Assembly (NCBI RefSeq): GCF_018739865.1
Contig: NZ_JADOER010000001.1
Location: 61,899-93,898, forward strand
Reading direction: 5' to 3'
Length of the DNA: 32,000 bases
Origin: Leptothoe kymatousa TAU-MAC 1615
GTDB lineage: Bacteria > Cyanobacteriota > Cyanobacteriia > Phormidesmidales > Phormidesmidaceae
Shown here: piece after piece, positions 4,991 through 20,107 of the stretch
Position numbering within the stretch: the stretch's first letter is position 1
How the letters are laid out: each line of letters begins with the position of its first letter
Program-made: the position numbers and the translations under genes
Notes under the pieces: generated by a model
The model's input: only the letters and a program-made list of their open reading frames with translations
The model's database searches: none
What the model was told of the DNA's origin: nothing

Positions 4991-5068
4991 TCTAGGGTCC
5001 CCTCCAGCATTAGATAGCTTTGGAGGAGGGTCTCTTTCGACCGTTATTTTTCTCTTTGATTTGGGACT

Positions 5069-7199: not shown

Positions 7200-9632
7200 T
7201 TATTCGGTGGTTCCCAGGGCGTCTTTTAAGAAAAGGGTTAATTCTTCTTCTTGGAATTCGGTGACAAATTTCTGAATCTGTTGGGTAAAGGCGGTATAAC
7301 TAGAATCTGTTTCCATCAGTTGCTCTGCCTGTAGTTTTATTTTTTTTAGATTACCTTGTAGGGCTAGATGGTGAAGTGATTGAAGAACCTTTTCGGGTGG
7401 GCAGTGGAGACCGCTCGTGGTTGAGGAAGCGATGGCTTTGGGGGCTAATGGCTGGTATACCCAAGTGAGGTTAAGGTGAGTTTGAAGGGCTTTGAACAGG
7501 CTATCGGCTTGTACCGGCTTGGGTAAAAAGTCACTGCTGCCTGCCATTAAGCTGTTTTGTTCATCCACAGCACTGACGCTAGCGGATGAGGTGATGATCG
7601 GAATGGTGTGCCATGCCGCTGACTGGCGGAGCTGTTTGATCAGGGTAAAGCCATCCATAATTGGCATCACTAAATCGGTGATAATGGCATCGGGTTGACA
7701 CTGGTCAAGTTTTTCGAGGGCGTCTTGTCCGTGAATGGCCTCAATAATTTCAAAGCCTACATCGGTGAGTAACCTTGTTAAAACATCGCGATTTTCCCAA
7801 TGGTCATCGACCACTAGAATATGGCGAGTGGGGCCGTCATAGCCGGTGATTTTTTCGTTAACGGCTGTGGCAATTGGGTCTATACTTTCGAGGCAATAGG
7901 GCACTGTAATGGTGAATTCAAAGGTGCTTCCTTGGCCGGGTTGGCTGTTCACCTCGATGGCGCCGCCCATGAGTGACACAATTTGTTGGCTGATGGCTAA
8001 GCCCAGCCCTGTTCCCTCCGCTTGTTTCTGTCGTTGGCCCACCTGTTCAAAGGGGGCAAAAATCTGTTGGCATTGTTCGGGTGAAATGCCAATGCCGGTG
8101 TCTTCTACCATAAAATGTAGCTGGCAGATGTTGTTGCTATGGTCACTGCGGTTAACGCGGAGGGCGACCTTGCCCTGGTCTGTAAATTTGATGGCGTTGC
8201 TCAGGAGATTTAGCAGTACCTGGCGTAGCCGTTTGACGTCGGTGATAATGCCGGTGGGCAATGTGTCGTCAAATAGGTATTGGAATTCAATGTTTTTTTG
8301 GTCGGCCTGGAGCTGACAAATTTCGACGATGCTTTGCAGTAGAGAGCCTAAATGGGCTTCCTTGGGATCTAGGGTGAGTTTACGGGCTTCAATTTTGGCA
8401 AGGTCGAGGATGTCGTTAATCAGGGTGAGGAGGTGGGAGCCGCATTGGTAGATGACCTTGAGCCCTTGTTGATCGCGGGCCCCTAGATGTTGCGATCGCA
8501 GCAAGATTTGAGCATAGCCCAAAATGCCATTGAGGGGAGTGCGCAGTTCGTGGCTCATATTTGCCAAAAACTCACTTTTTGCCTGGTTCGCAGCGTCGGC
8601 TAGTTCCTTCGACTTGCGCAGTTGTTGTTGCTTAAACTGTTGCACCCACCACAGCCCCACCAGCATGGCACTAACCAACCCCAGAATGAGAATGGCCATG
8701 AAGTTTAGTAACTGTAGCTGAGATTCAATATTTTGTTGAGGGATGACCAGGGCCAGGGACCAGTCTGCCTCTTGAATCGGCATATAGGCCACATACACGG
8801 GTTCACCATTTAAGGCCGTTCGATCGATCTTTTTACGACCGTCTACCATCTGTCGCGCGATGGTGGCCAGGGCTTTTTCATCACTGTCAACCAGGCTGGT
8901 TGGATTTTCGTCATTGATGGTACCCATCAATGTTTTGTCGGGATGGATGATGGGTAATCCCGTGGAGTTTAAGGCAAATGCATAGCTATTGGGGCCATAC
9001 TCCAATGCATTGACTTCCTGCTCTAGCTGGTCAATGTCGATCAGCCCAGCGGTGACACCAATGGGGCTGCCCTGTTGGTTGGCATCGGCCCAAATCGTGG
9101 ACGTTACCGCCACGATCGGGGTGTCTAGGGTTCTAGAAATAACAGGGTCAGATACGTAGGTATTACCCTTTAGGGCTTCTTTCACATGCTGACGGTCTTT
9201 TAGATTTTTACCCTCTGCATAACCAACTTTCGTGTTGTAGTAAGTCCCATCCGGGTTGATCATGGCAAAAAAGTAGAAGTCTGGAATGCGGGTGACTTCC
9301 GATTGCAAAAAGGGCTCGGCAATATACCAATCCATGGACCGCATCGACGGGGTGTTGGCGATGCTGGCCACCTCTGCTTTGCGCTGAATTAACCATTGAT
9401 CTAGGGTGTCTGTGCGCTGTTCGAGCTCTAGTAAAACATTGCGTTTGATATTGCTCAGCAGCAGCCCCCGCACAATGCGATAGCTCCAATAGCCGGTGAG
9501 GCCCACCCCAAGCGCCGCACCGAGGACGAGGACTCGCTTAATCCAGCTGCGCAGTCCTTGGCGAAAGGCTTGCTGCGCAGGGGATTCAGTGTTTTTGAGG
9601 TTAGATACTCCAGACAATGGTGCAGGGGTCAT
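7200..9632 (-). CDS. Hybrid sensor histidine kinase (TM - Cache-like periplasmic domain - TM - HisKA - HATPase - REC - helical C-terminal extension)
   Basis: Two hydrophobic segments ('[16 protein letters not shown]', '[20 protein letters not shown]') flank a ~270-aa Cache-like region. Kinase motifs are H-box 'SHELRTPLN', N-box 'LLSNAIKFT', G1 'DTGIGI' and G2 'GTGLGLAIS'. Receiver motifs are '[11 protein letters not shown]' and '[14 protein letters not shown]'. Confidence 0.9.
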
Positions 9633-11162: not shown

Positions 11163-12446
11163 ATGAAACAAGTTTTCACCAACAATACGGCAGTACCCAT
11201 TTCGCGGTTTGCCCCCACCAGTGTTAGTTCCAACCTTAACGTTGCCAATATTCCTGGATCGTTACAGCGCATTACGGTCACCCTCAACCTGGTGCACACC
11301 TTTACCGAAGATCTAAGCATCTCTCTATTAGCCCCCAATGGCTCGTCTATTCTATTAGTCGGTAATGAAGGCGGCAGTGGCGACAACTTTTTCGACACCA
11401 CCTTCGACGACGAAGCAGGGGTGCCCATCACCCAGGGCAGAGCGCCTTTTCAAGGTACATTTCGGCCAGAACAGCCCCTGGCCACCTTGCTCAGCAGTGA
11501 CCCCAACGGCACCTGGTCTTTACAGATTCAAGACCAGGCCTTTTTCGATGGCGGCGTGCTCAATCGCTGGTCCCTAGAGCTAGTTTTTGATAGCCCGGTG
11601 CCCGAGCCCGAGCCCACGCCAACTCCCACGCCAACTCCCACGCCCACGCCCACCCCGACGCCCACGCCTGCTCCAGTATCGCAGTTCACCATCGAAATCC
11701 GCTTCCTAGGTGGTCTCACCGCATCTCAGCGGGCCGTATTTGAAACCGCCGCCGCCCGTTGGCAAGAGATTATTATTGGCGATCTACCCACTACAACCAT
11801 CGACGGTGAGACCATCGATGATGTGCGGATCGAAGCGCGGGGCCTTTCCATCGATGGTCCCAACGGTGTGTTGGGGCGGGCAGGTCCCACCCGGTTGCGC
11901 AGTGGTTCGTTGTTGCCTGCCACCGGCGTGATGGAGTTCGACATTGGTGACCTAGCCCGACTAGAGGCCGAGGGGGGCCTGTTGGATGTCATTATCCACG
12001 AGATGGGCCATGTGCTAGGCATTGGCACCATCTGGCAAACCCAGAACTTGTTGGTGGGGGCAGGCACCGCCAACCCGCAATATGTGGGCCAAAATGGTAT
12101 GCGAGAGTTTTCTACCCTGATTGCGGCCCAAGGGATGACACCAATCCCCGTGGCCAATACCGGTGGCCAGGGCACCCGCGATGGCCATTGGCGCGAAGCT
12201 GTTTTTGGCAATGAGCTAATGACCGGCTTCTTAAACCGGGGGCCAAATCCCCTGAGTCGTTTGACCGTAGGTTCCTTAGAAGATTTGGGCTATGCGGTGA
12301 ACTATACGGCGGCAGATCCCTATGGGCTACCGTCGTCGCTAATGTTAGCGGTGATGGGCGTTAACACCGCTGGGGACTACGGCCATCGTCAGTGTCGCAT
12401 GTGCGATGCGGGCATATTGGGGAATCACTTTTTCCCTCAGGTGTAG
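11163..12446 (+). CDS. Zinc metalloprotease, leishmanolysin (M8)-like catalytic domain preceded by an N-terminal P-domain and a (Thr-Pro)n linker
   Basis: The N-terminal ~140 aa ('ITVTLNLVHTFTEDLSISLLAPNGSSILL ... GTWSLQIQD ... WSLELVF') fit the proprotein-convertase P-domain pattern. The linker is 'PEPEPTPTPTPTPTPTPTPTPAP'. The zinc site is 'VIIHEMGHVLG', with a further His 63 residues after the first in 'RDGHWREAVFGNELMTG', which is like the leishmanolysin family signature. There is no N-terminal hydrophobic signal segment. Confidence 0.8.
   Translation: MKQVFTNNTAVPISRFAPTSVSSNLNVANIPGSLQRITVTLNLVHTFTEDLSISLLAPNGSSILLVGNEGGSGDNFFDTTFDDEAGVPITQGRAPFQGTFRPEQPLATLLSSDPNGTWSLQIQDQAFFDGGVLNRWSLELVFDSPVPEPEPTPTPTPTPTPTPTPTPTPAPVSQFTIEIRFLGGLTASQRAVFETAAARWQEIIIGDLPTTTIDGETIDDVRIEARGLSIDGPNGVLGRAGPTRLRSGSLLPATGVMEFDIGDLARLEAEGGLLDVIIHEMGHVLGIGTIWQTQNLLVGAGTANPQYVGQNGMREFSTLIAAQGMTPIPVANTGGQGTRDGHWREAVFGNELMTGFLNRGPNPLSRLTVGSLEDLGYAVNYTAADPYGLPSSLMLAVMGVNTAGDYGHRQCRMCDAGILGNHFFPQV
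11601..11675 (+). repeat. Coding low-complexity (Pro-Glu)2(Thr-Pro)n tract
   Basis: The sequence is 'cccgagcccgagcccacgccaactcccacgccaactcccacgcccacgcccaccccgacgcccacgcctgctcca'. It includes a perfect 12-nt duplication (cccacgccaact x2). Confidence 0.9.
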
Positions 12447-12775: not shown

Positions 12776-13855
12776 ATGCCTAAAATCCTGATTCTTGGGG
12801 CGAATCCTAACGGTACTACACGACTACGCTTAGATACAGAAGTCCGAGATATCAGCGATGGGTTAGAACGAGCCAAGCGGCGTGATGAGTTTCAGATTGC
12901 CCAGCGGTGGGCCGTGCGACCCCGCGACCTGCAGCGGGCCATGCTGGATGAACAGCCCCAAATCGTACATTTCTCTGGCCATGGGGAAGGGGAAACGGGG
13001 CTATATTTTGAGGATGAAGTTGGCAATGCGCAGCTGGTGACAGGGGACGCGTTGGCTGGGCTGTTTAAGTTATTTAAGAGCCAGCTACAGTGCGTGGTGC
13101 TAAATGGCTGCTATTCCGAAGTGCAGGCCGAAGCGATTTCGGCCCATATTCCCTATGTTATCGGCATGCGGGATGGGGTAAAGGATACGGCAGCCATTGA
13201 GTTTGCGGTTGGTTTCTATGACGCCCTAGGCACTGGGCAGTCGGTGGAGTTTGCCTTTGAGTTTGGCAAAGCGGCCATGGCCCTAGGCGGAGTGGGCGAC
13301 GAAGATTTGCCTGTGTTGCTCCAGTCGGAAACAGGCTCTGCTAGTGGTGGGTCGCCTGCAGCACCTGCCCCCTCGACCCCGTCAAAGCCGGTGGATCCCA
13401 ATCAGCCCTTGAACGTGTTTATTTCCTATTCCCATCGGGATGAAGACCTCAAGGAAGAGCTGGAGGTGCATCTGTCCACCCTGAAGCGACAAAAGAAAAT
13501 TAAACCCTGGCAGGATCGGTCCATTGAGGCCGGAACAGAATGGGACGATGAAATTAAAACCGCCCTGGAAAATGCCCAGATCATCCTGATGCTGGTAACA
13601 CCCCGGTTTATGGCCTCGGACTACATCAACGACATTGAGCTAGCCCATGCCATGAAACGCCACAATGCCGGCACCGCACGGGTGATTCCCATTATCCTCA
13701 AACCGTCGGATGTCAAAGATACGCCATTGAGTAACCTCCAGGCATTGCCCAAGGATGCCAAGCCAGTCACCCGCTGGGATGACCAGGATGAAGCCTTTTT
13801 GGATGTGGTCAAGGGCATTCGTCGGGTGGTAGATTCCCTCACTAAAAACCCTTAG
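12776..13855 (+). CDS. Two-domain effector protein: N-terminal compact caspase/CHAT-like domain + C-terminal TIR domain
   Basis: Residues 1-180 carry 'IVHFSGHG' (His65/His69) and 'VVLNGCYS' (Cys112), the His...Cys order of caspase-fold CHAT domains. Residues 181-210 are a Pro/Ser/Ala linker. Residues 211-345 show the TIR pattern: 'VFISYSHRD', 'WQDRSIEAGTEWDDEI' and 'IILMLVTPRFMASDYINDIELAHA', with candidate catalytic Glu288. Confidence 0.82.
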   Translation: MPKILILGANPNGTTRLRLDTEVRDISDGLERAKRRDEFQIAQRWAVRPRDLQRAMLDEQPQIVHFSGHGEGETGLYFEDEVGNAQLVTGDALAGLFKLFKSQLQCVVLNGCYSEVQAEAISAHIPYVIGMRDGVKDTAAIEFAVGFYDALGTGQSVEFAFEFGKAAMALGGVGDEDLPVLLQSETGSASGGSPAAPAPSTPSKPVDPNQPLNVFISYSHRDEDLKEELEVHLSTLKRQKKIKPWQDRSIEAGTEWDDEIKTALENAQIILMLVTPRFMASDYINDIELAHAMKRHNAGTARVIPIILKPSDVKDTPLSNLQALPKDAKPVTRWDDQDEAFLDVVKGIRRVVDSLTKNP

Positions 13856-13941
13856 CCGCCTCTTCGACTCCGGAGGATGCCCCTGCGGAGAGGCGAGATA
13901 CGGTATCAAAATCCCCAATTCCAGAGCAAACTCTGGGGTAT

Positions 13942-16020
13942 TTGTCCCCTAGCGTGCCGCGACTGCCACCCAAATTTTTACCAAGGTCAGAAGATTTAGG
14001 CGTGCTCAAAACGACAATCTTAGGGTCTAGTCAGCCGCCGGTGGCGGTCACCGGCACCCGACGGGGGCTTAGCATTCAGGGCATGGGGGGCATTGGCAAG
14101 TCGGTGTTGGCGGCGGCCCTTGCCCGGGATAGTGCGGTGCGTCAGGCATTTGCCGATGGGGTGTATTGGGTGTCCCTAGGCCAGGAGCCCAATGTGCTGT
14201 CGTTGCAGACGGAATTAGCACGGGAATTGGGTGACAAAACACCGGACTTTAGTGATGTGTCGGGGGGTAAAAAGTTTTTGACCGAGCTGCTGGCACCGCA
14301 GCGTTGTTTTGTGGTGTTGGATGATATTTGGGATGAACAACATCTGCGGGCATTTGATGTATTGGGGGACCAGGGCCAGATGCTGGTCACCACCCGCGAT
14401 AGTAGCTTGGTGACGGGCATTGGTGCGGTGGAGCACTCGTTGAATTTATTGTCGCCTGACCAGGCCAGGGTGTTGTTGGCGAGGTGGACCGGCTGTGGGG
14501 TAACGGAGCTGCCAACCGAGGCGGATAAGATTGCCAGGGAATGTGGCTATTTGCCCCTGGCGCTGGCCATGGCGGGGGCCATGCTGAAGAAAAGTCGTCG
14601 TTGGGAGTCGGTGTTGCAGCGGCTGCAGCGGGCAGACCTGGATAAGATTCGGCAACAGTTCCCGGACTATGACTATCCAGACCTGCTGAAGATGCTGCAG
14701 GTGAGTGTGGATGCTTTGGAGCCAGAGCTGCAGGAGAGATATTTAGACTTTGCGGTATTTCCAGAGGATGCGCGCATACCGGAGGCGGTATTGCAGACGC
14801 TGTGGGCACCTGTGGGCCTGGATGAGCTGGATGTGGTGGATATTTTGGATGACCTGGTGGCCAAGTCGTTGTTGCGACGGGACGATCAGGAGAATTTGTT
14901 TCTCCATGATTTGCAGTATGACTACATTGGTAAGCAGGTAAAGGATTTGCCTGGGCTGCATCAGCGGTGGTTGGATGCGTATAAAGAAAAATGTGGGCAG
15001 GGTTGGGCCAGCTGCCCCCAGGATGGCTACTTTTTTGGTCAGCTGACGCGGCATTTAAAAGAGGCGGGGCAGGTGGATCAGCTGCGCAGTTTGTTGTTTG
15101 ACTATGACTGGCTGCGGGCACAGCTAACGGCCAATGGCATCAATGGTTTGCTGGCAGATTATGACTGGCTAACGGATGACAAACTGTTGCAGCTGTTGCA
15201 GAGCACATTGCGGCTATCGGCCCATGTGTTGGCCACTAAACCACAACAGCTAAACCAGAGGCTCTGGGGCCACCTGAGGGATAGGGAACAACCAGAATTT
15301 AGCACGTTGTTAACCGAGGGGGCCGCGCAACAACCATCACTGTGGCTGCAACCCCAGCAAGCTAACCTGACGGCCCCCGATGGGGCATTGTTGCGTACCT
15401 TTGAGGGCCATAGCGGCGAGGTCATGTCCGTGGCGCTGAGTGAGGATGGCCGTCATGCGCTGTCAGGGTCATACGACAAGACGATGAAACTGTGGGATGT
15501 GACGACGGGAGAGGCGTTGCGCACCTTTGAGGGCCATAGCGGCGGGGTCAGGTCCGTGGCGCTGAGTGAGGATGGCCGTCATGCGCTGTCAGGGTCAGAA
15601 GACAAGACGATGAAACTGTGGGATGTGACGACGGGAGAGGCGTTGCGCACCTTTGAGGGCCATAGCGGCTGGGTCAGGTCCGTGGCGCTGAGTGAGGATG
15701 GCCGTCATGCGCTGTCAGGGTCATCCGACAATACGATGAAACTGTGGGATGTGACGACGGGAGAGGCGTTGCGCACCTTTGAGGGCCATAGCGGCTGGGT
15801 CGGGTCCGTGGCGCTGAGTGAGGATGGCCGTCATGCGCTGTCAGGGTCATCCGACAATACGATAAAACTGTGGGATCTGACCACGGACAACTGTTTAGCC
15901 ACCTTCTGTGGCGACCATTCATTCTATGCCTGTGACCTATCTGCCGATGGCGTCACCATTGTTGCGGGCGACCAAGCAGGCACCGTCCATTTCTTTTCTG
16001 TTATCACACCAGAGCCTTAG
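13942..16020 (+). CDS. STAND NTPase of the NB-ARC / Apaf-1 (AP-ATPase) type with C-terminal WD40 repeats and no N-terminal effector domain
   Basis: NB-ARC motifs are Walker A 'GMGGIGKS', Walker B 'CFVVLDDIWD', 'LVTTRD', 'GYLPLALAMAG' and the MHD-equivalent 'LFLHDL'. A helical region 'LLFDYDWLRAQL...LLADYDWL' resembles Apaf-1 HD2. Four near-identical WD40 units plus one degenerate unit follow. The start is uncertain: TTG 13942 or GTG 13954. The first ATG (14083) lies inside the Walker A motif. Confidence 0.85.
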   Translation: MSPSVPRLPPKFLPRSEDLGVLKTTILGSSQPPVAVTGTRRGLSIQGMGGIGKSVLAAALARDSAVRQAFADGVYWVSLGQEPNVLSLQTELARELGDKTPDFSDVSGGKKFLTELLAPQRCFVVLDDIWDEQHLRAFDVLGDQGQMLVTTRDSSLVTGIGAVEHSLNLLSPDQARVLLARWTGCGVTELPTEADKIARECGYLPLALAMAGAMLKKSRRWESVLQRLQRADLDKIRQQFPDYDYPDLLKMLQVSVDALEPELQERYLDFAVFPEDARIPEAVLQTLWAPVGLDELDVVDILDDLVAKSLLRRDDQENLFLHDLQYDYIGKQVKDLPGLHQRWLDAYKEKCGQGWASCPQDGYFFGQLTRHLKEAGQVDQLRSLLFDYDWLRAQLTANGINGLLADYDWLTDDKLLQLLQSTLRLSAHVLATKPQQLNQRLWGHLRDREQPEFSTLLTEGAAQQPSLWLQPQQANLTAPDGALLRTFEGHSGEVMSVALSEDGRHALSGSYDKTMKLWDVTTGEALRTFEGHSGGVRSVALSEDGRHALSGSEDKTMKLWDVTTGEALRTFEGHSGWVRSVALSEDGRHALSGSSDNTMKLWDVTTGEALRTFEGHSGWVGSVALSEDGRHALSGSSDNTIKLWDLTTDNCLATFCGDHSFYACDLSADGVTIVAGDQAGTVHFFSVITPEP
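15391..15894 (+). repeat. Four tandem 126-bp (42-codon) near-identical WD40-coding units
   Basis: Units start at 15391, 15517, 15643 and 15769. Units 1-3 differ from their neighbour at only 5 of 126 nt. Each encodes 'LRTFEGHSGxVxSVALSEDGRHALSGSxDxTMKLWDVTTGEA'. Confidence 0.97.
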
Positions 16021-16894: not shown

Positions 16895-19800
16895 ATGCTG
16901 ACCTCTACTCCTATCGTTGATGTCACAACCCAACCAACATCGGTAGCCCTTCCAAACCAAACAACAACCCAACATACCGTTATCCTCGATTCACAAATTG
17001 AGGACCTAAACCTACTGCTGGATGGTTTACGAGCAGATGTCACAGCCCATGTGCTCACAGCCCATGAGGATGGATTACAGCAAATCACTGCGTTTCTAAC
17101 GCAACATCCCACACAGCACCTAACCCTCCTGGCCCATGGCTTCCCCGGTGGTATGCGCCTGGGGGCAACCACCGTAGACATTAACCACTTAGACACTCAC
17201 ACTCCGCAGCTGCAGCAGTGGTTTGCCCCCACCGCCCCGGCAAAACTAACTCTAATGGCTTGTAATGTGGCCCAAGGGGATGCGGGGCAGGCGTTTATTC
17301 AACAACTTGCGACCGTTACCGCCGCTGATGTTACGGCCAGCGTCAATGTTTTGGGTAATGGCGTTTGGCTACCCGCTGCTAAGGCGTTGTTTACGCCGGC
17401 AACCCTGGCGGCCTACCGTGGCACCCTGCAATGGTCAACTGTGGGTGCCGGGGCCATTGCCCCCCAGATTGACAACGACTTTGACATTGAAATAGACAGC
17501 CAGGGTACGCCCTATATTATTTTCCAGGATGATGCCAATGGCGTGACGGTGAAACGGTTCGATGGCCTCAATTGGGTGGATGTGGGGGTGCCCGGTTTTC
17601 CGGAGGGCAATGCTAGCTTTGTCGGCCTAGAATTTGGCCTGAATGATACCCCCTATGTGGTCTTTAAGGATGATGCCAATAACAGCCGGGCCACGGTGAT
17701 GCAGTTTAATGGCACCGACTGGGCCTATGTGGGTGATCCTGGCTTTTCGCCGGGAGGGTTTAAGGACATTAACATGAAGTTCTACGGTGATGCGCCCTAT
17801 GTGGTGTTCACCGATAGAACCCAAAATTCCCGGGCCACGGTGATGGTCTTTGATGGCCTCAGTTGGGAAACGGTGGGCAACCCTGGCTTTTCCACTGGGG
17901 CGGTGGCCGCCTCTGATATCAACATTGATGGCAACGGTGTGCCCTATGTGGCCTATGTGTCTGGGGAAGAGGGCTTCGAACAGGTCTCTGTGCAGCGATT
18001 TATCAATGGCCAGTGGAGCTTTGTTGGCGCGGAAGGATTTTCGGTGGGGGCGGAGGCTGCCAGACCGGATATTGAGTTTGATAATAACAATGTGCCCTAC
18101 CTTGTTTACCGGGCTCGGGGCAACGGCGAAGGCAATAAGGCCATTGTGCAATCGTTTAATGGCACCGACTGGATCAAAGTGGGCAGCAATGATGCGTCCA
18201 TTGCCGGTGGTTTCCACCCCGATCTGGAGTTTGACCAGAACAATGTTCTCAATCTGGCGATTGTGGACCAGGCTCTGAAAGATAAGGTCTCGGTGCGCAT
18301 CCTGAATCCAGATAATACCTGGGGCTATTTGGATGATAGTGGTTTCTCGTTGGGGCCAACAAACTTCCCAGACCTGGAGTTTGATAGCAACAACCTGCCC
18401 TATGTGCTCTATCGTGAGACGTTTGACGCCAATGGGGATGTTGCATCCAGCGCCGTGGTAAAACGTTTGGGCGAACCCGCTACGGTGGTGGATAATATCG
18501 CCCCTGTGTTGGCCAGTGTGAGTCGCAAAACTCCCCTTGGGGCGACGGTCCCTAGTGGCACTGTGGTGTTTGAGGCGCTCTTTAGTGAGGCGGTGGCCAA
18601 TGTTGGCCCAGAAGATTTTGTGATTAATGGGTTGCCCACGGCCACCATTGATGCGGTAACGACGACAGACAGCACTCGCTATGACATTGCGGTGACGGCC
18701 ACTGGCGCAGCCGGTAGCGTTTTTGGGCTAGATTTAGCTACGGTGTCTGACATTGTGGATATTGCGGGCAATGGGTTAACCCTGGCAGAGCCCACTGTGG
18801 ATGAGGCATATACCCTTGCGGGACCTTTGGTGGCCCCTGTGCTATCCAGCATCCGTCGCAAAACGCCCGTTGAGGCTGCGGTTACTGGTAATAGCACCCT
18901 GGTATTTGAGGCCACCTTTAGTGAGGGGGTGGTCAACGTTGGCCCAGAAGATTTTGTGATTAATGGGTTGCCCACGGCCACCATTGCCGGGGTAACGGCT
19001 GTGGACGCCACTCGCTATGACATTGCGGTGACGGCCAATGTGGGGGATGCCGCCAGTGGCACGGTTGGTTTAGATTTGGCCGCAGTTTCGGATATTGTCA
19101 ACGCTGCGGGGACGGCCTTAACGCTGGTCGAGCCGACGGTGGATCAGGCGTATACCGTTACGGCCCCAGGGACTGTGGCCCCAGCGCCTCCGGCCACCCC
19201 TGTGGTTGAGCCTCCTACCCCCCCCGTTGTATTGCCTGAGGTGGTAACGCCCGTTGCACCTGGTGCGCTGACGATTTTACCCAGTGTGAATCGGGTGGAA
19301 GTGACATCTCTAGGCACCGATAATACGCTGCAGCTAACATTTCGAGGGGGGCAGGTGACGAATGTCCCCGACATTCTGGTCTTTGATGAGGCGGATGCGC
19401 TGATTGGCCAGTTTTCCTTGCTGGATTCTGATGACCTAGCTGCGGGGTATACGTCTCGGTTTACCATCAGTAGCAATGCCATTAGTGTTGGTCAGAGTTT
19501 GCAGTTTGCGATTCAGGATGGGGAGACGACCTGGTTTGCAGACCCCGCAAGGCTATCCGACTCTGAAGCTCTGTTGAGGTTTGGCAATGGGTTTAGCTTT
19601 AATGTGGGATTGGCGACCGAAACGGGTAGTACGAACCTATTGGTAAATGATGCGGAGTCTATTGACCTGACGGGGCAGGCGTCTGGCACCATCAGTTTCT
19701 CGGTGTATCGAGAGGCGGCGATGGATAATACGGTGGATTTGTATACAACTGATTTTGCCGATGGTGGCATTGTTGATGCGTTCACTGGGCGCACCTTGAT

Positions 19801-20107
19801 GCCCGGTGATGCTGGCTATAGGGCAGCGGCCATTTCTAATCGGTTAAATCTCAACCTATCGGGCACCAACGGTCAGGTTAATACGGTGGATGCGGCGGTT
19901 ACCGGCGGCATGCATCTCGGCATTTTTGTGGTGATCGATGGCATAGACCCTGCCGTTGGCGAGGTTGTGTTTAGCCACAGTGGAGCCAATGCCAATGGGG
20001 CGGACCACATTAAACACCTGGGCGACAATTCTTTTGGCATTGAAGATCAGGCTGGGTTGGGCGATAAAGACTTTGACGATATTGTTTTACAGTTTTCTGT
20101 TGCCTAG
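16895..20107 (+). CDS. Large multidomain protein: DUF4347-like N-terminus, seven ~50-aa propeller-like repeats, two Ig-like repeats, Pro-rich linker, DUF4114-like C-terminus
   Basis: The N-terminus 'VILDSQIEDL...LTLLAHGFPGGMRLG...LTLMACNVAQGDAGQAFIQQLA' has a DUF4347-like pattern. Seven repeats follow the form 'D(I/L)EFDxxxxPYVxY...xATVxxFNGTDWxxVGxPGFS' (aa ~190-528). Two ~112-aa repeats ('RKTP...VFEA.FSE.V.NVGPEDFVINGLPTATI...RYDIAVTA') share a 49-nt identical block. The C-terminal 'FGIEDQAGLGDKDFDDIVLQF' is DUF4114-like. There is no signal peptide. Confidence 0.8.
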   Translation: MLTSTPIVDVTTQPTSVALPNQTTTQHTVILDSQIEDLNLLLDGLRADVTAHVLTAHEDGLQQITAFLTQHPTQHLTLLAHGFPGGMRLGATTVDINHLDTHTPQLQQWFAPTAPAKLTLMACNVAQGDAGQAFIQQLATVTAADVTASVNVLGNGVWLPAAKALFTPATLAAYRGTLQWSTVGAGAIAPQIDNDFDIEIDSQGTPYIIFQDDANGVTVKRFDGLNWVDVGVPGFPEGNASFVGLEFGLNDTPYVVFKDDANNSRATVMQFNGTDWAYVGDPGFSPGGFKDINMKFYGDAPYVVFTDRTQNSRATVMVFDGLSWETVGNPGFSTGAVAASDINIDGNGVPYVAYVSGEEGFEQVSVQRFINGQWSFVGAEGFSVGAEAARPDIEFDNNNVPYLVYRARGNGEGNKAIVQSFNGTDWIKVGSNDASIAGGFHPDLEFDQNNVLNLAIVDQALKDKVSVRILNPDNTWGYLDDSGFSLGPTNFPDLEFDSNNLPYVLYRETFDANGDVASSAVVKRLGEPATVVDNIAPVLASVSRKTPLGATVPSGTVVFEALFSEAVANVGPEDFVINGLPTATIDAVTTTDSTRYDIAVTATGAAGSVFGLDLATVSDIVDIAGNGLTLAEPTVDEAYTLAGPLVAPVLSSIRRKTPVEAAVTGNSTLVFEATFSEGVVNVGPEDFVINGLPTATIAGVTAVDATRYDIAVTANVGDAASGTVGLDLAAVSDIVNAAGTALTLVEPTVDQAYTVTAPGTVAPAPPATPVVEPPTPPVVLPEVVTPVAPGALTILPSVNRVEVTSLGTDNTLQLTFRGGQVTNVPDILVFDEADALIGQFSLLDSDDLAAGYTSRFTISSNAISVGQSLQFAIQDGETTWFADPARLSDSEALLRFGNGFSFNVGLATETGSTNLLVNDAESIDLTGQASGTISFSVYREAAMDNTVDLYTTDFADGGIVDAFTGRTLMPGDAGYRAAAISNRLNLNLSGTNGQVNTVDAAVTGGMHLGIFVVIDGIDPAVGEVVFSHSGANANGADHIKHLGDNSFGIEDQAGLGDKDFDDIVLQFSVA

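Follow-up and report, generated by a model that had tools for sequence, protein, structure and literature searches.

The STAND/NLR-like NTP-dependent conflict systems known from multicellular bacteria carry their effector either in one chain with the NTPase or in a neighbouring gene (Kaur, Burroughs, Iyer, Aravind 2020, PMC7159879). A pair of this kind lies in the window analysed here, a stretch of 32,000 nt from the cyanobacterium Leptothoe kymatousa TAU-MAC 1615 (contig NZ_JADOER010000001.1, positions 61,899 to 93,898), in which an open reading frame (ORF) encoding a CHAT-TIR protein is followed, in the −1 frame, by an ORF encoding an NB-ARC-WD40 protein. The same N-terminal TIR and caspase-like CHAT effector, STAND NTPase and WD40 or TPR repeats are found in the systems described in PMC7159879. 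The ‘adjacent gene’ state found here, however, looks like a recoded fusion rather than a pair of independent genes or a pairing by adaptor domains. We consider it probable that programmed −1 ribosomal frameshifting operates at the window junction, and we are considerably more confident that it does so in the wider CHAT-TIR family, in which the heptamer A_AAA_AAG is present; both assignments are based on comparison of sequences. It is from the conserved slip motif, stop codon, hairpin, −1 phase and open frame that we infer the slip and its frequency.

The CHAT-TIR ORF (zero frame, 12776–13855, forward strand) encodes a putative effector of 359 aa, which would be the termination product in the proposed scheme. 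It contains the Pfam domains CHAT (5.7e-10) and TIR_2 (1.4e-17); its presumed catalytic residues, H69 and C112 in CHAT and E288 in TIR, do not vary across 32 homologues. Its 3′ end reads ACT AAA AAC CCT TAG, with the stop at 13853–55 and an A5 run at 13844–48. The second ORF (13846–16020, forward strand) encodes, according to Pfam, NB-ARC (1.9e-31), the APAF1 helical domain (APAF1_C, 2.8e-12) and WD40 repeats (1.9e-50), and is the presumed sensor. Its frame, shifted by −1 from that of TIR, is closed by TAA at 13843–45, open over 13846–16017 and reads KPLAASSTPEDAPAERRDTVSKSPIPEQTLGY from 13846. The Walker A motif GMGGIGKS (14080–14103), the motif VVLDDIW and the combination of NB-ARC with APAF1_C assign the product to the STAND NTPases, and the upstream CHAT and TIR effector domains together with the C-terminal WD40 repeats complete the STAND/NLR layout. 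Each of the two ORFs has a 100% identical counterpart among the NCBI proteins of L. kymatousa; the one for CHAT-TIR is named ‘TIR domain-containing protein’.

The second ORF has no obvious start. Over the 86 nt past the CHAT-TIR stop there is no ATG, GTG or TTG in frame, which does not correspond to an ordinary coupled gene pair. The first candidates are TTG 13942, GTG 13954 and GTG 14002; no ATG occurs in frame before 14083, where it encodes the Met within Walker A. No good Shine-Dalgarno (SD) sequence was found ahead of any candidate sensor start in the window. The open frame without a start codon before TTG 13942, the lack of a convincing SD sequence there and the Met within Walker A, as well as the positions of the stop codon and the A5 run, had been pointed out in a preliminary description of the stretch and hold in full, as does its conclusion that a −1 shift yields a single ORF of about 1081 aa: the continuous product would have 1081 aa in the order CHAT-TIR, linker, NB-ARC, WD40. 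The trans-frame linker in the −1 frame (13852–13953, forward strand) is LAASSTPEDAPAERRDTVSKSPIPEQTLGYLSPS, and the predicted tryptic peptide spanning the junction of the −1 product is NPLAASSTPEDAPAER.

In public annotations the sensor starts are placed at arbitrary internal codons (window, 13942–14004; L090, NC_009932.1, 13201–13351). The NCBI product P0121 has 672 aa, with its start at GTG 14002. In RefSeq, the corresponding pair on Acaryochloris marina pREB7, AM1_RS36240/AM1_RS36235, which carries A_AAA_AAG, is likewise called as two genes, the second of which starts at a TTG, 52 codons into the −1 ORF. The ‘intergenic’ 86–149 nt left by both annotations are open in frame.

The candidate shift site is A_AAC_CCU (13846–13852, forward strand), which has the X_XXY_YYZ form and contains the conserved core tetramer C_CCU (13849–13852). 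The zero-frame stop UAG (13853–13855, forward strand) abuts it, in a ‘shifty stop’ context. The heptamer U_AAA_AAC was ruled out as a shift site, since its −1 codon would be UAA (13843–45). The preliminary description had judged T-AAA-AAC not to be a canonical site and ranked regulated slippage as the weakest of its explanations; it overlooked the overlapping A_AAC_CCU as well as the hairpin described below. In the light of the comparative evidence regulated slippage is the best supported of its explanations. When a downstream stimulator is present in E. coli, only six Z_ZZ.N tetramers are clearly prone to −1 shifts, in the order A_AA.G >> U_UU.C > U_UU.U > C_CC.U = C_CC.C > A_AA.A (PMC4066793). 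With a strong stimulator nearly all X_XXZ_ZZN heptamers respond, A_AA.C_CC.A being one of three exceptions (PMC4066793).

Seven orthologous junctions of the clade were compared: those of the window, L003, L004/L005, L006 (same contig as L010), L007, L008 and L009, with L011 added later. In all seven, NB-ARC lies at −1 relative to CHAT-TIR and its frame is open back over the TIR stop. The NB-ARC proteins share 61–87% amino acid identity and both ORFs are intact. The sequence C CCT TAR is invariant at the seven junctions, the stop directly following the slip motif in each of them, and the codon preceding CCT always ends in C (AAC three times, GAC once, ACC three times). TAG is the stop in 5/7 clade members and in 11/12 of the A_AAA_AAG loci with an adjoining stop. 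The A-run is absent in L003 (junction GCA AAC CCT TAG), L006 (GCA GAC CCT TAA), L007 and L008, and the architecture is kept there; the proposed shift site does not rely on the A5 run.

These junctions decide about two explanations offered earlier. According to the first, the A5 run is a homopolymer sequencing error; a true A6 would make the gene one continuous ORF. Apart from the A5 run itself nothing speaks for this: the frame break is not unique to the window assembly, being found in seven independently assembled clade members, which agree on stop and phase, and in at least 12 further loci, and the corresponding position is also where over 60 homologous proteins terminate. We regard the chance of such an error as negligible. 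According to the second, a genuine frameshift mutation has split a fused gene into a pseudogene or a degenerating pair. Fused TIR-NB-ARC relatives do exist (P0127, described below, and others), but the split is common to lineages down to 61% NB-ARC identity, both ORFs have remained intact and the junction is more strongly constrained than the coding sequence next to it, which makes this explanation very improbable. Because the same −1 layout occurs at seven junctions, several of them without an A-run, both the homopolymer error and a recent inactivating frameshift were excluded.

The junction is in fact the best-conserved stretch of the region. From the heptamer onward 26/52 alignment columns are invariant, as against 0/26 in the TIR tail upstream, and every indel in the linker has a length divisible by 3. 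The orthologues have two ORFs at −1, and the linker frame is open in all of them. The conservation of the junction, consisting of invariant columns without significant codon periodicity in the linker, points to a constraint on the RNA. Given the result of the codon-phase test, no protein-level constraint on the linker is claimed; it would be a weakly constrained peptide. A zero-frame small ORF starting at GGAGGATG 13877 (MPLRRGEIRY...) was also considered. It is kept in the three closest loci and absent in L010, L007 and L008, and it was dropped as a probable by-product of the conservation of the DNA.

A stem-loop located at 13857–13895 (forward strand), 4–5 nt past the slip site, is a candidate frameshift stimulator. 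Its arms, CGCCUCUUCG (13857–13866) and CGGAGAGGCG (13886–13895), form 10 bp in the window, and the fold has an energy of −21.0 kcal/mol (z = −1.98). Single-sequence folding in 85-nt windows gave modest z-scores between 0 and −3.3, so a comparison of candidates with controls was needed. For the 48 nt following the stop, the mean z against dinucleotide shuffles was −2.41 in 18 candidate loci and +0.36 in 20 controls, which were CHAT-TIR loci without a −1 ORF (Mann-Whitney p = 3.6e-7). Among the 18 candidates the stem sequences vary between lineages and the spacing is appropriate. Within the clade alignment 88% of cells are paired, as compared with at most 60% when the partners were slid, and the outermost stem pair occurs in four types (C-G, U-G, G-C and A-U). 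The stem core GCCUCU/AGAGGC is invariant in the clade, the adjoining upstream TIR tail is fully variable, and conservation is higher in the hairpin than in the coding sequence on either side. A scan of 13600–14100 against Rfam gave nothing meaningful.

This hairpin also bears on the possibility of transcriptional slippage, in which the polymerase would add an A within the A-run (A5 to A6) and the mRNA itself would be fused. The A5 at 13844–48 and the A6 within A_AAA_AAG of the wider family speak for it. Runs of A5 to A6 are, however, short for efficient transcriptional slippage, L003, L006, L007 and L008 keep the architecture without any A-run, and a conserved downstream hairpin combined with an adjacent stop marks ribosomal, not transcriptional, slippage. 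Slippage of the polymerase is hence a highly unlikely explanation.

The wider family strengthens the case for ribosomal frameshifting. CHAT-TIR homologues number about 5,600. Among the best 120 homologues of the CHAT-TIR protein listed, identity ranges from 58 to 84% and nearly all are stand-alone proteins of 340–400 aa; 62/95 homologues of this length end exactly in ‘KK*’. All 13 motif-bearing loci for which DNA was available carry A_AAA_AAG exactly. The stop adjoins the motif in 12 of them (TAG in 11, TAA in 1) and lies four codons on in L028. The codon preceding the motif ends in A in 13/13 cases, despite encoding L, A, T, P, S or G, and the rare CTA is that codon in 5/6 Leu cases. The −1 frame runs for 194–1102 codons in 12/13 loci, and the encoded STAND NTPases differ (NB-ARC-WD40, NB-ARC-TPR, nSTAND1, iSTAND and AAA_16). 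Most A_AAA_AAG loci have a GC-rich stem of 9–13 bp beginning 0–3 nt past the stop; the stems are lineage-specific, for example ACUCUCCGU/ACGGAGAGU, GGUUCUCCGC/GCGGAGAACC and CCCGUUCUCGAC/GUUGAGGACGGG. In two loci the −1 ORF offers a start codon only within or beyond parts of the NTPase domain: the earliest candidate is 3′ of the P-loop in L028 and inside the NB-ARC domain in L017. The lineages share ancestry, and simple probabilities overstate their independence; several independent samples can nevertheless be argued for because flanking codons, stems and partner NTPases change. Scanning metagenomes with the CHAT-TIR alignment yielded mainly relatives that have CHAT alone, and a single further A_AAA_AAG locus (L092). 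IS895 is an insertion element of Anabaena. The same heptamer A_AAA_AAG has been reported in it (PMC2246112). The clade of the window appears to have swapped this strongest motif for a weaker recognized one while keeping the stop and the hairpin.

A similar design was found in a sister family of CHAT-only ORFs of about 290–320 aa, which end in ‘..NPQ*’ and carry the sequence NNC CCT CAR/CGC TAG. The sites are located at ~4835–4900 in L056, ~4853–4920 in L066, ~3752–3820 in L074, ~4880–4950 in L075 and ~4829–4890 in L077. C_CCU is kept in 5/5 loci, and directly 3′ of the stop there is a hairpin of 9–10 bp, CCCCUYCNN...NNGGAGGGG, the inner pairs of which covary. The stem begins 6 nt after C_CCU, as compared with 4–5 nt in the window, and a −1 ORF of 322–691 codons encoding a P-loop NTPase is present in 4/5 loci. 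This family looks like a second frameshift cassette, one that would use C_CCU.

Other relatives represent further states of the pair. The protein P0127 of Leptolyngbyaceae MO_188.B28 (L171, 3001–5139) is a single in-frame TIR-NB-ARC-WD40 protein without a CHAT domain, 65% identical to the window protein over the NB-ARC region. Its junction, GAC AAA CCC TCA GTC GCC TTT TCG, is collinear and indel-free with the −1 frame of the window, AAA CCC TTA GCC GCC TCT TCG, and one additional nucleotide 5′ of AAACCC sets the TIR of P0127 in the frame that is −1 in the window, so that no shift is needed. Because of this collinearity, the predicted trans-frame product matches the architecture of a real protein. 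At four Nostoc loci, L022 (~5018–5060), L018, L019 and L044, CHAT-TIR is cut short by an in-frame TAA (‘..NSL*’), with an ATG 2 nt later (TAAAATG). In L018, L019 and L044, where the downstream ORF is short, the former tcAAAAAAGTAG site can still be recognized just 3′ of it; in L022 that site has lost one A (ttcAAAAAGTAG). In L022 the downstream ORF has 686 codons; the cassette seems to have been resolved into two ordinary genes there. In L020 the ORFs overlap by ATGA, i.e. they have an ordinary coupled start and stop.

The most serious competing account is that the window contains two ordinary genes: the sensor would start independently at GTG 13954, TTG 13942 or GTG 14002, the hairpin would serve mRNA processing, stability or coupling, and frameshifting would be a disused relic of an A_AAA_AAG cassette in this clade. 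Several observations favour it and weigh against frameshifting at the window junction. The GTG at the Val of ‘VPRLPP’ is kept in 6/7 clade members, which makes independent initiation of the sensor possible, and TTG 13942 and GTG 13954 both lie upstream of the entire NB-ARC domain. Codon periodicity of the linker was not significant overall (p = 0.55) or downstream of the hairpin (p = 0.07); 3′ of TTG 13942 it was (p = 0.001). C_CCU and A_AAC_CCU are weak in E. coli, where the related A_AA.C_CC.A is below the threshold (PMC4066793), and no conserved upstream SD-like stimulator was seen when looked for across the family loci. Since the stem core never varies, the covariation within the clade is limited. 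In L173 (4620–4640), which is nearly identical to L007, a CCT→CAT change (Pro→His) at the slip codon abolishes C_CCU, and the hairpin and an intact NB-ARC ORF of 637 codons are retained; the change may have arisen recently or reflect faulty assembly, or it may indicate that C_CCU is not required. In addition, CHAT-TIR occurs without any sensor in L001, L172 and L174. The resolved pair of L022 and the public annotations, which call two genes, are also in agreement with independent initiation.

Two ordinary genes would nevertheless leave much unexplained: the invariant C_CCU with its stop and the C-ending preceding codon, the constant −1 phase with a frame open over the stop in every lineage, the location of the hairpin 4–6 nt past the slip site and not at a start codon, and the recurrence of the same design in the sister family. 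The absence of a good SD sequence before any candidate start does not favour this account either. On balance we consider it unlikely for the window, though clearly less so than the mutational and transcriptional explanations, and prefer programmed frameshifting.

If frameshifting operates as proposed, most ribosomes would terminate at UAG 13853–55 and release free CHAT-TIR of 359 aa. A minority would slip one base back, the tRNA-Pro on CCU (13850–52) re-pairing to CCC (13849–51); the tRNA-Asn of L. kymatousa may slip too, from AAC to AAA. The adjacent stop and the hairpin at 13857–13895, which would pause the ribosomes, may aid the slip. Slipped ribosomes would read UUA GCC GCC onward and produce the 1081-aa CHAT-TIR-linker-NB-ARC-WD40 protein. 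The cassette would in this way set the ratio of free to sensor-tethered effector and tune the system. Upon ligand binding, the STAND sensor would oligomerize and the tethered TIR and CHAT domains would cluster, and the clustered domains may recruit or activate the free CHAT-TIR pool. A sensor-only product starting at GTG 13954 or TTG 13942 may also be formed.

The presumed ligand-sensing propeller contains a WD40 repeat array (15390–15886, forward strand) of 126-nt units in 3.9 copies which are 96% identical. The near identity of the units suggests recent homogenization or turnover of repeats in this presumed ligand-binding part. In the L003 orthologue (~8700–8800) the array is broken by a run of N (X's in the translation), which is probably an assembly gap due to near-identical repeats.

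The pair is not syntenic when the window is compared with L172, L003, L004 and L009, and seems to move or to be lost as a module. The upstream neighbours differ: RND efflux genes are found in relatives, and a leishmanolysin-like peptidase gene with a P-domain (11163–12446) in the window. The peptidase-like ORF contains a hexanucleotide repeat, GCCCAC × 9.5 (11612–11668), encoding a Pro-Thr linker. A DUF4347/DUF4114 gene downstream (16895–20107 in the window) is shared with L172, in which the NB-ARC gene is deleted.

As a tentative generalization, which we regard as possible but rather less probable than frameshifting at the window junction, programmed −1 frameshifting may be a general but so far unrecognized principle by which NLR-like immune or cell-death systems are built in cyanobacteria. 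It would consist of a portable cassette of effector, slip site and hairpin, with two motif classes (A_AAA_AAG and C_CCU) and at least five kinds of STAND sensors, which would keep a low fixed ratio of tethered to free effector, the tethered copies nucleating free CHAT-TIR by seeded polymerization and thus amplifying the signal. Should the frameshifting itself be confirmed, recoding would join the ways in which bacterial NLR-like systems link sensing to killing, and CHAT-TIR genes taken for ‘orphans’, in their hundreds, as well as STAND genes taken for ‘N-terminally truncated’ would each prove to be one half of a recoded gene that annotation has split wrongly. The pair would then offer a natural system to probe effector-to-sensor stoichiometry in relation to activation threshold and autoimmunity. 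It would also form part of an evolutionary series of four states, comprising the hard-wired fusion (P0127), the frameshift cassette, the resolved genes (Nostoc L022) and the effector alone. The window junction itself would be a rare natural bacterial −1 site built from a C_CCU tetramer and an adjacent stop.

Frameshifting as a mechanism is well known, and its use for coupling an immune-like effector to a sensor appears to be new. The term does not occur in PMC7159879 (0 matches), and in the full-text literature searched, which included the Aravind-lab papers defining the conflict systems, the Atkins 2016 review on recoding, the GeneTack survey and a 2025 preprint, frameshifting was reported for no TIR, CHAT, STAND or NLR system; this is not proof of novelty. 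With Thoeris, the locus shares a TIR that matches the ThsB-type model of PADLOC (3.4e-50 for the CHAT-TIR ORF). In contrast to Thoeris, this TIR shares its chain with CHAT and is coupled with a STAND NTPase. No ThsA partner is adjacent, the flanking genes encoding the leishmanolysin-like peptidase, NB-ARC-WD40 and DUF4347, and membership of Thoeris was rejected for want of ThsA. PADLOC gave no system-level match for the NB-ARC ORF.

The closest mechanistic parallels are dnaX (tau/gamma) and the IS3/IS911 elements, in which a slippery motif is followed by a stem-loop about 5–6 nt downstream and two products share their N-terminus; the wider CHAT-TIR family uses A_AAA_AAG exactly. As with OrfA and OrfAB of IS3, the predicted shift product is the longer fusion. 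Whereas dnaX and IS3/IS911 serve replication or transposition, the host pair here consists of an immune-like effector and a STAND sensor. It further differs from them in that the zero-frame stop of CHAT-TIR abuts the heptamer, an upstream SD-like stimulator was not found at the CHAT-TIR loci, and in the clade of the window the weaker C_CCU or A_AAC_CCU replaces A_AAA_AAG. The genes are unrelated to the G/GT tail-assembly chaperone genes of phage lambda and the slip sequence is another one, and the assembly role of CHAT-TIR is putative. The proposed output is, however, analogous to that of lambda G/GT: a short protein and its C-terminally extended fusion would be made in a fixed low ratio, and the domain they share could permit their co-assembly.

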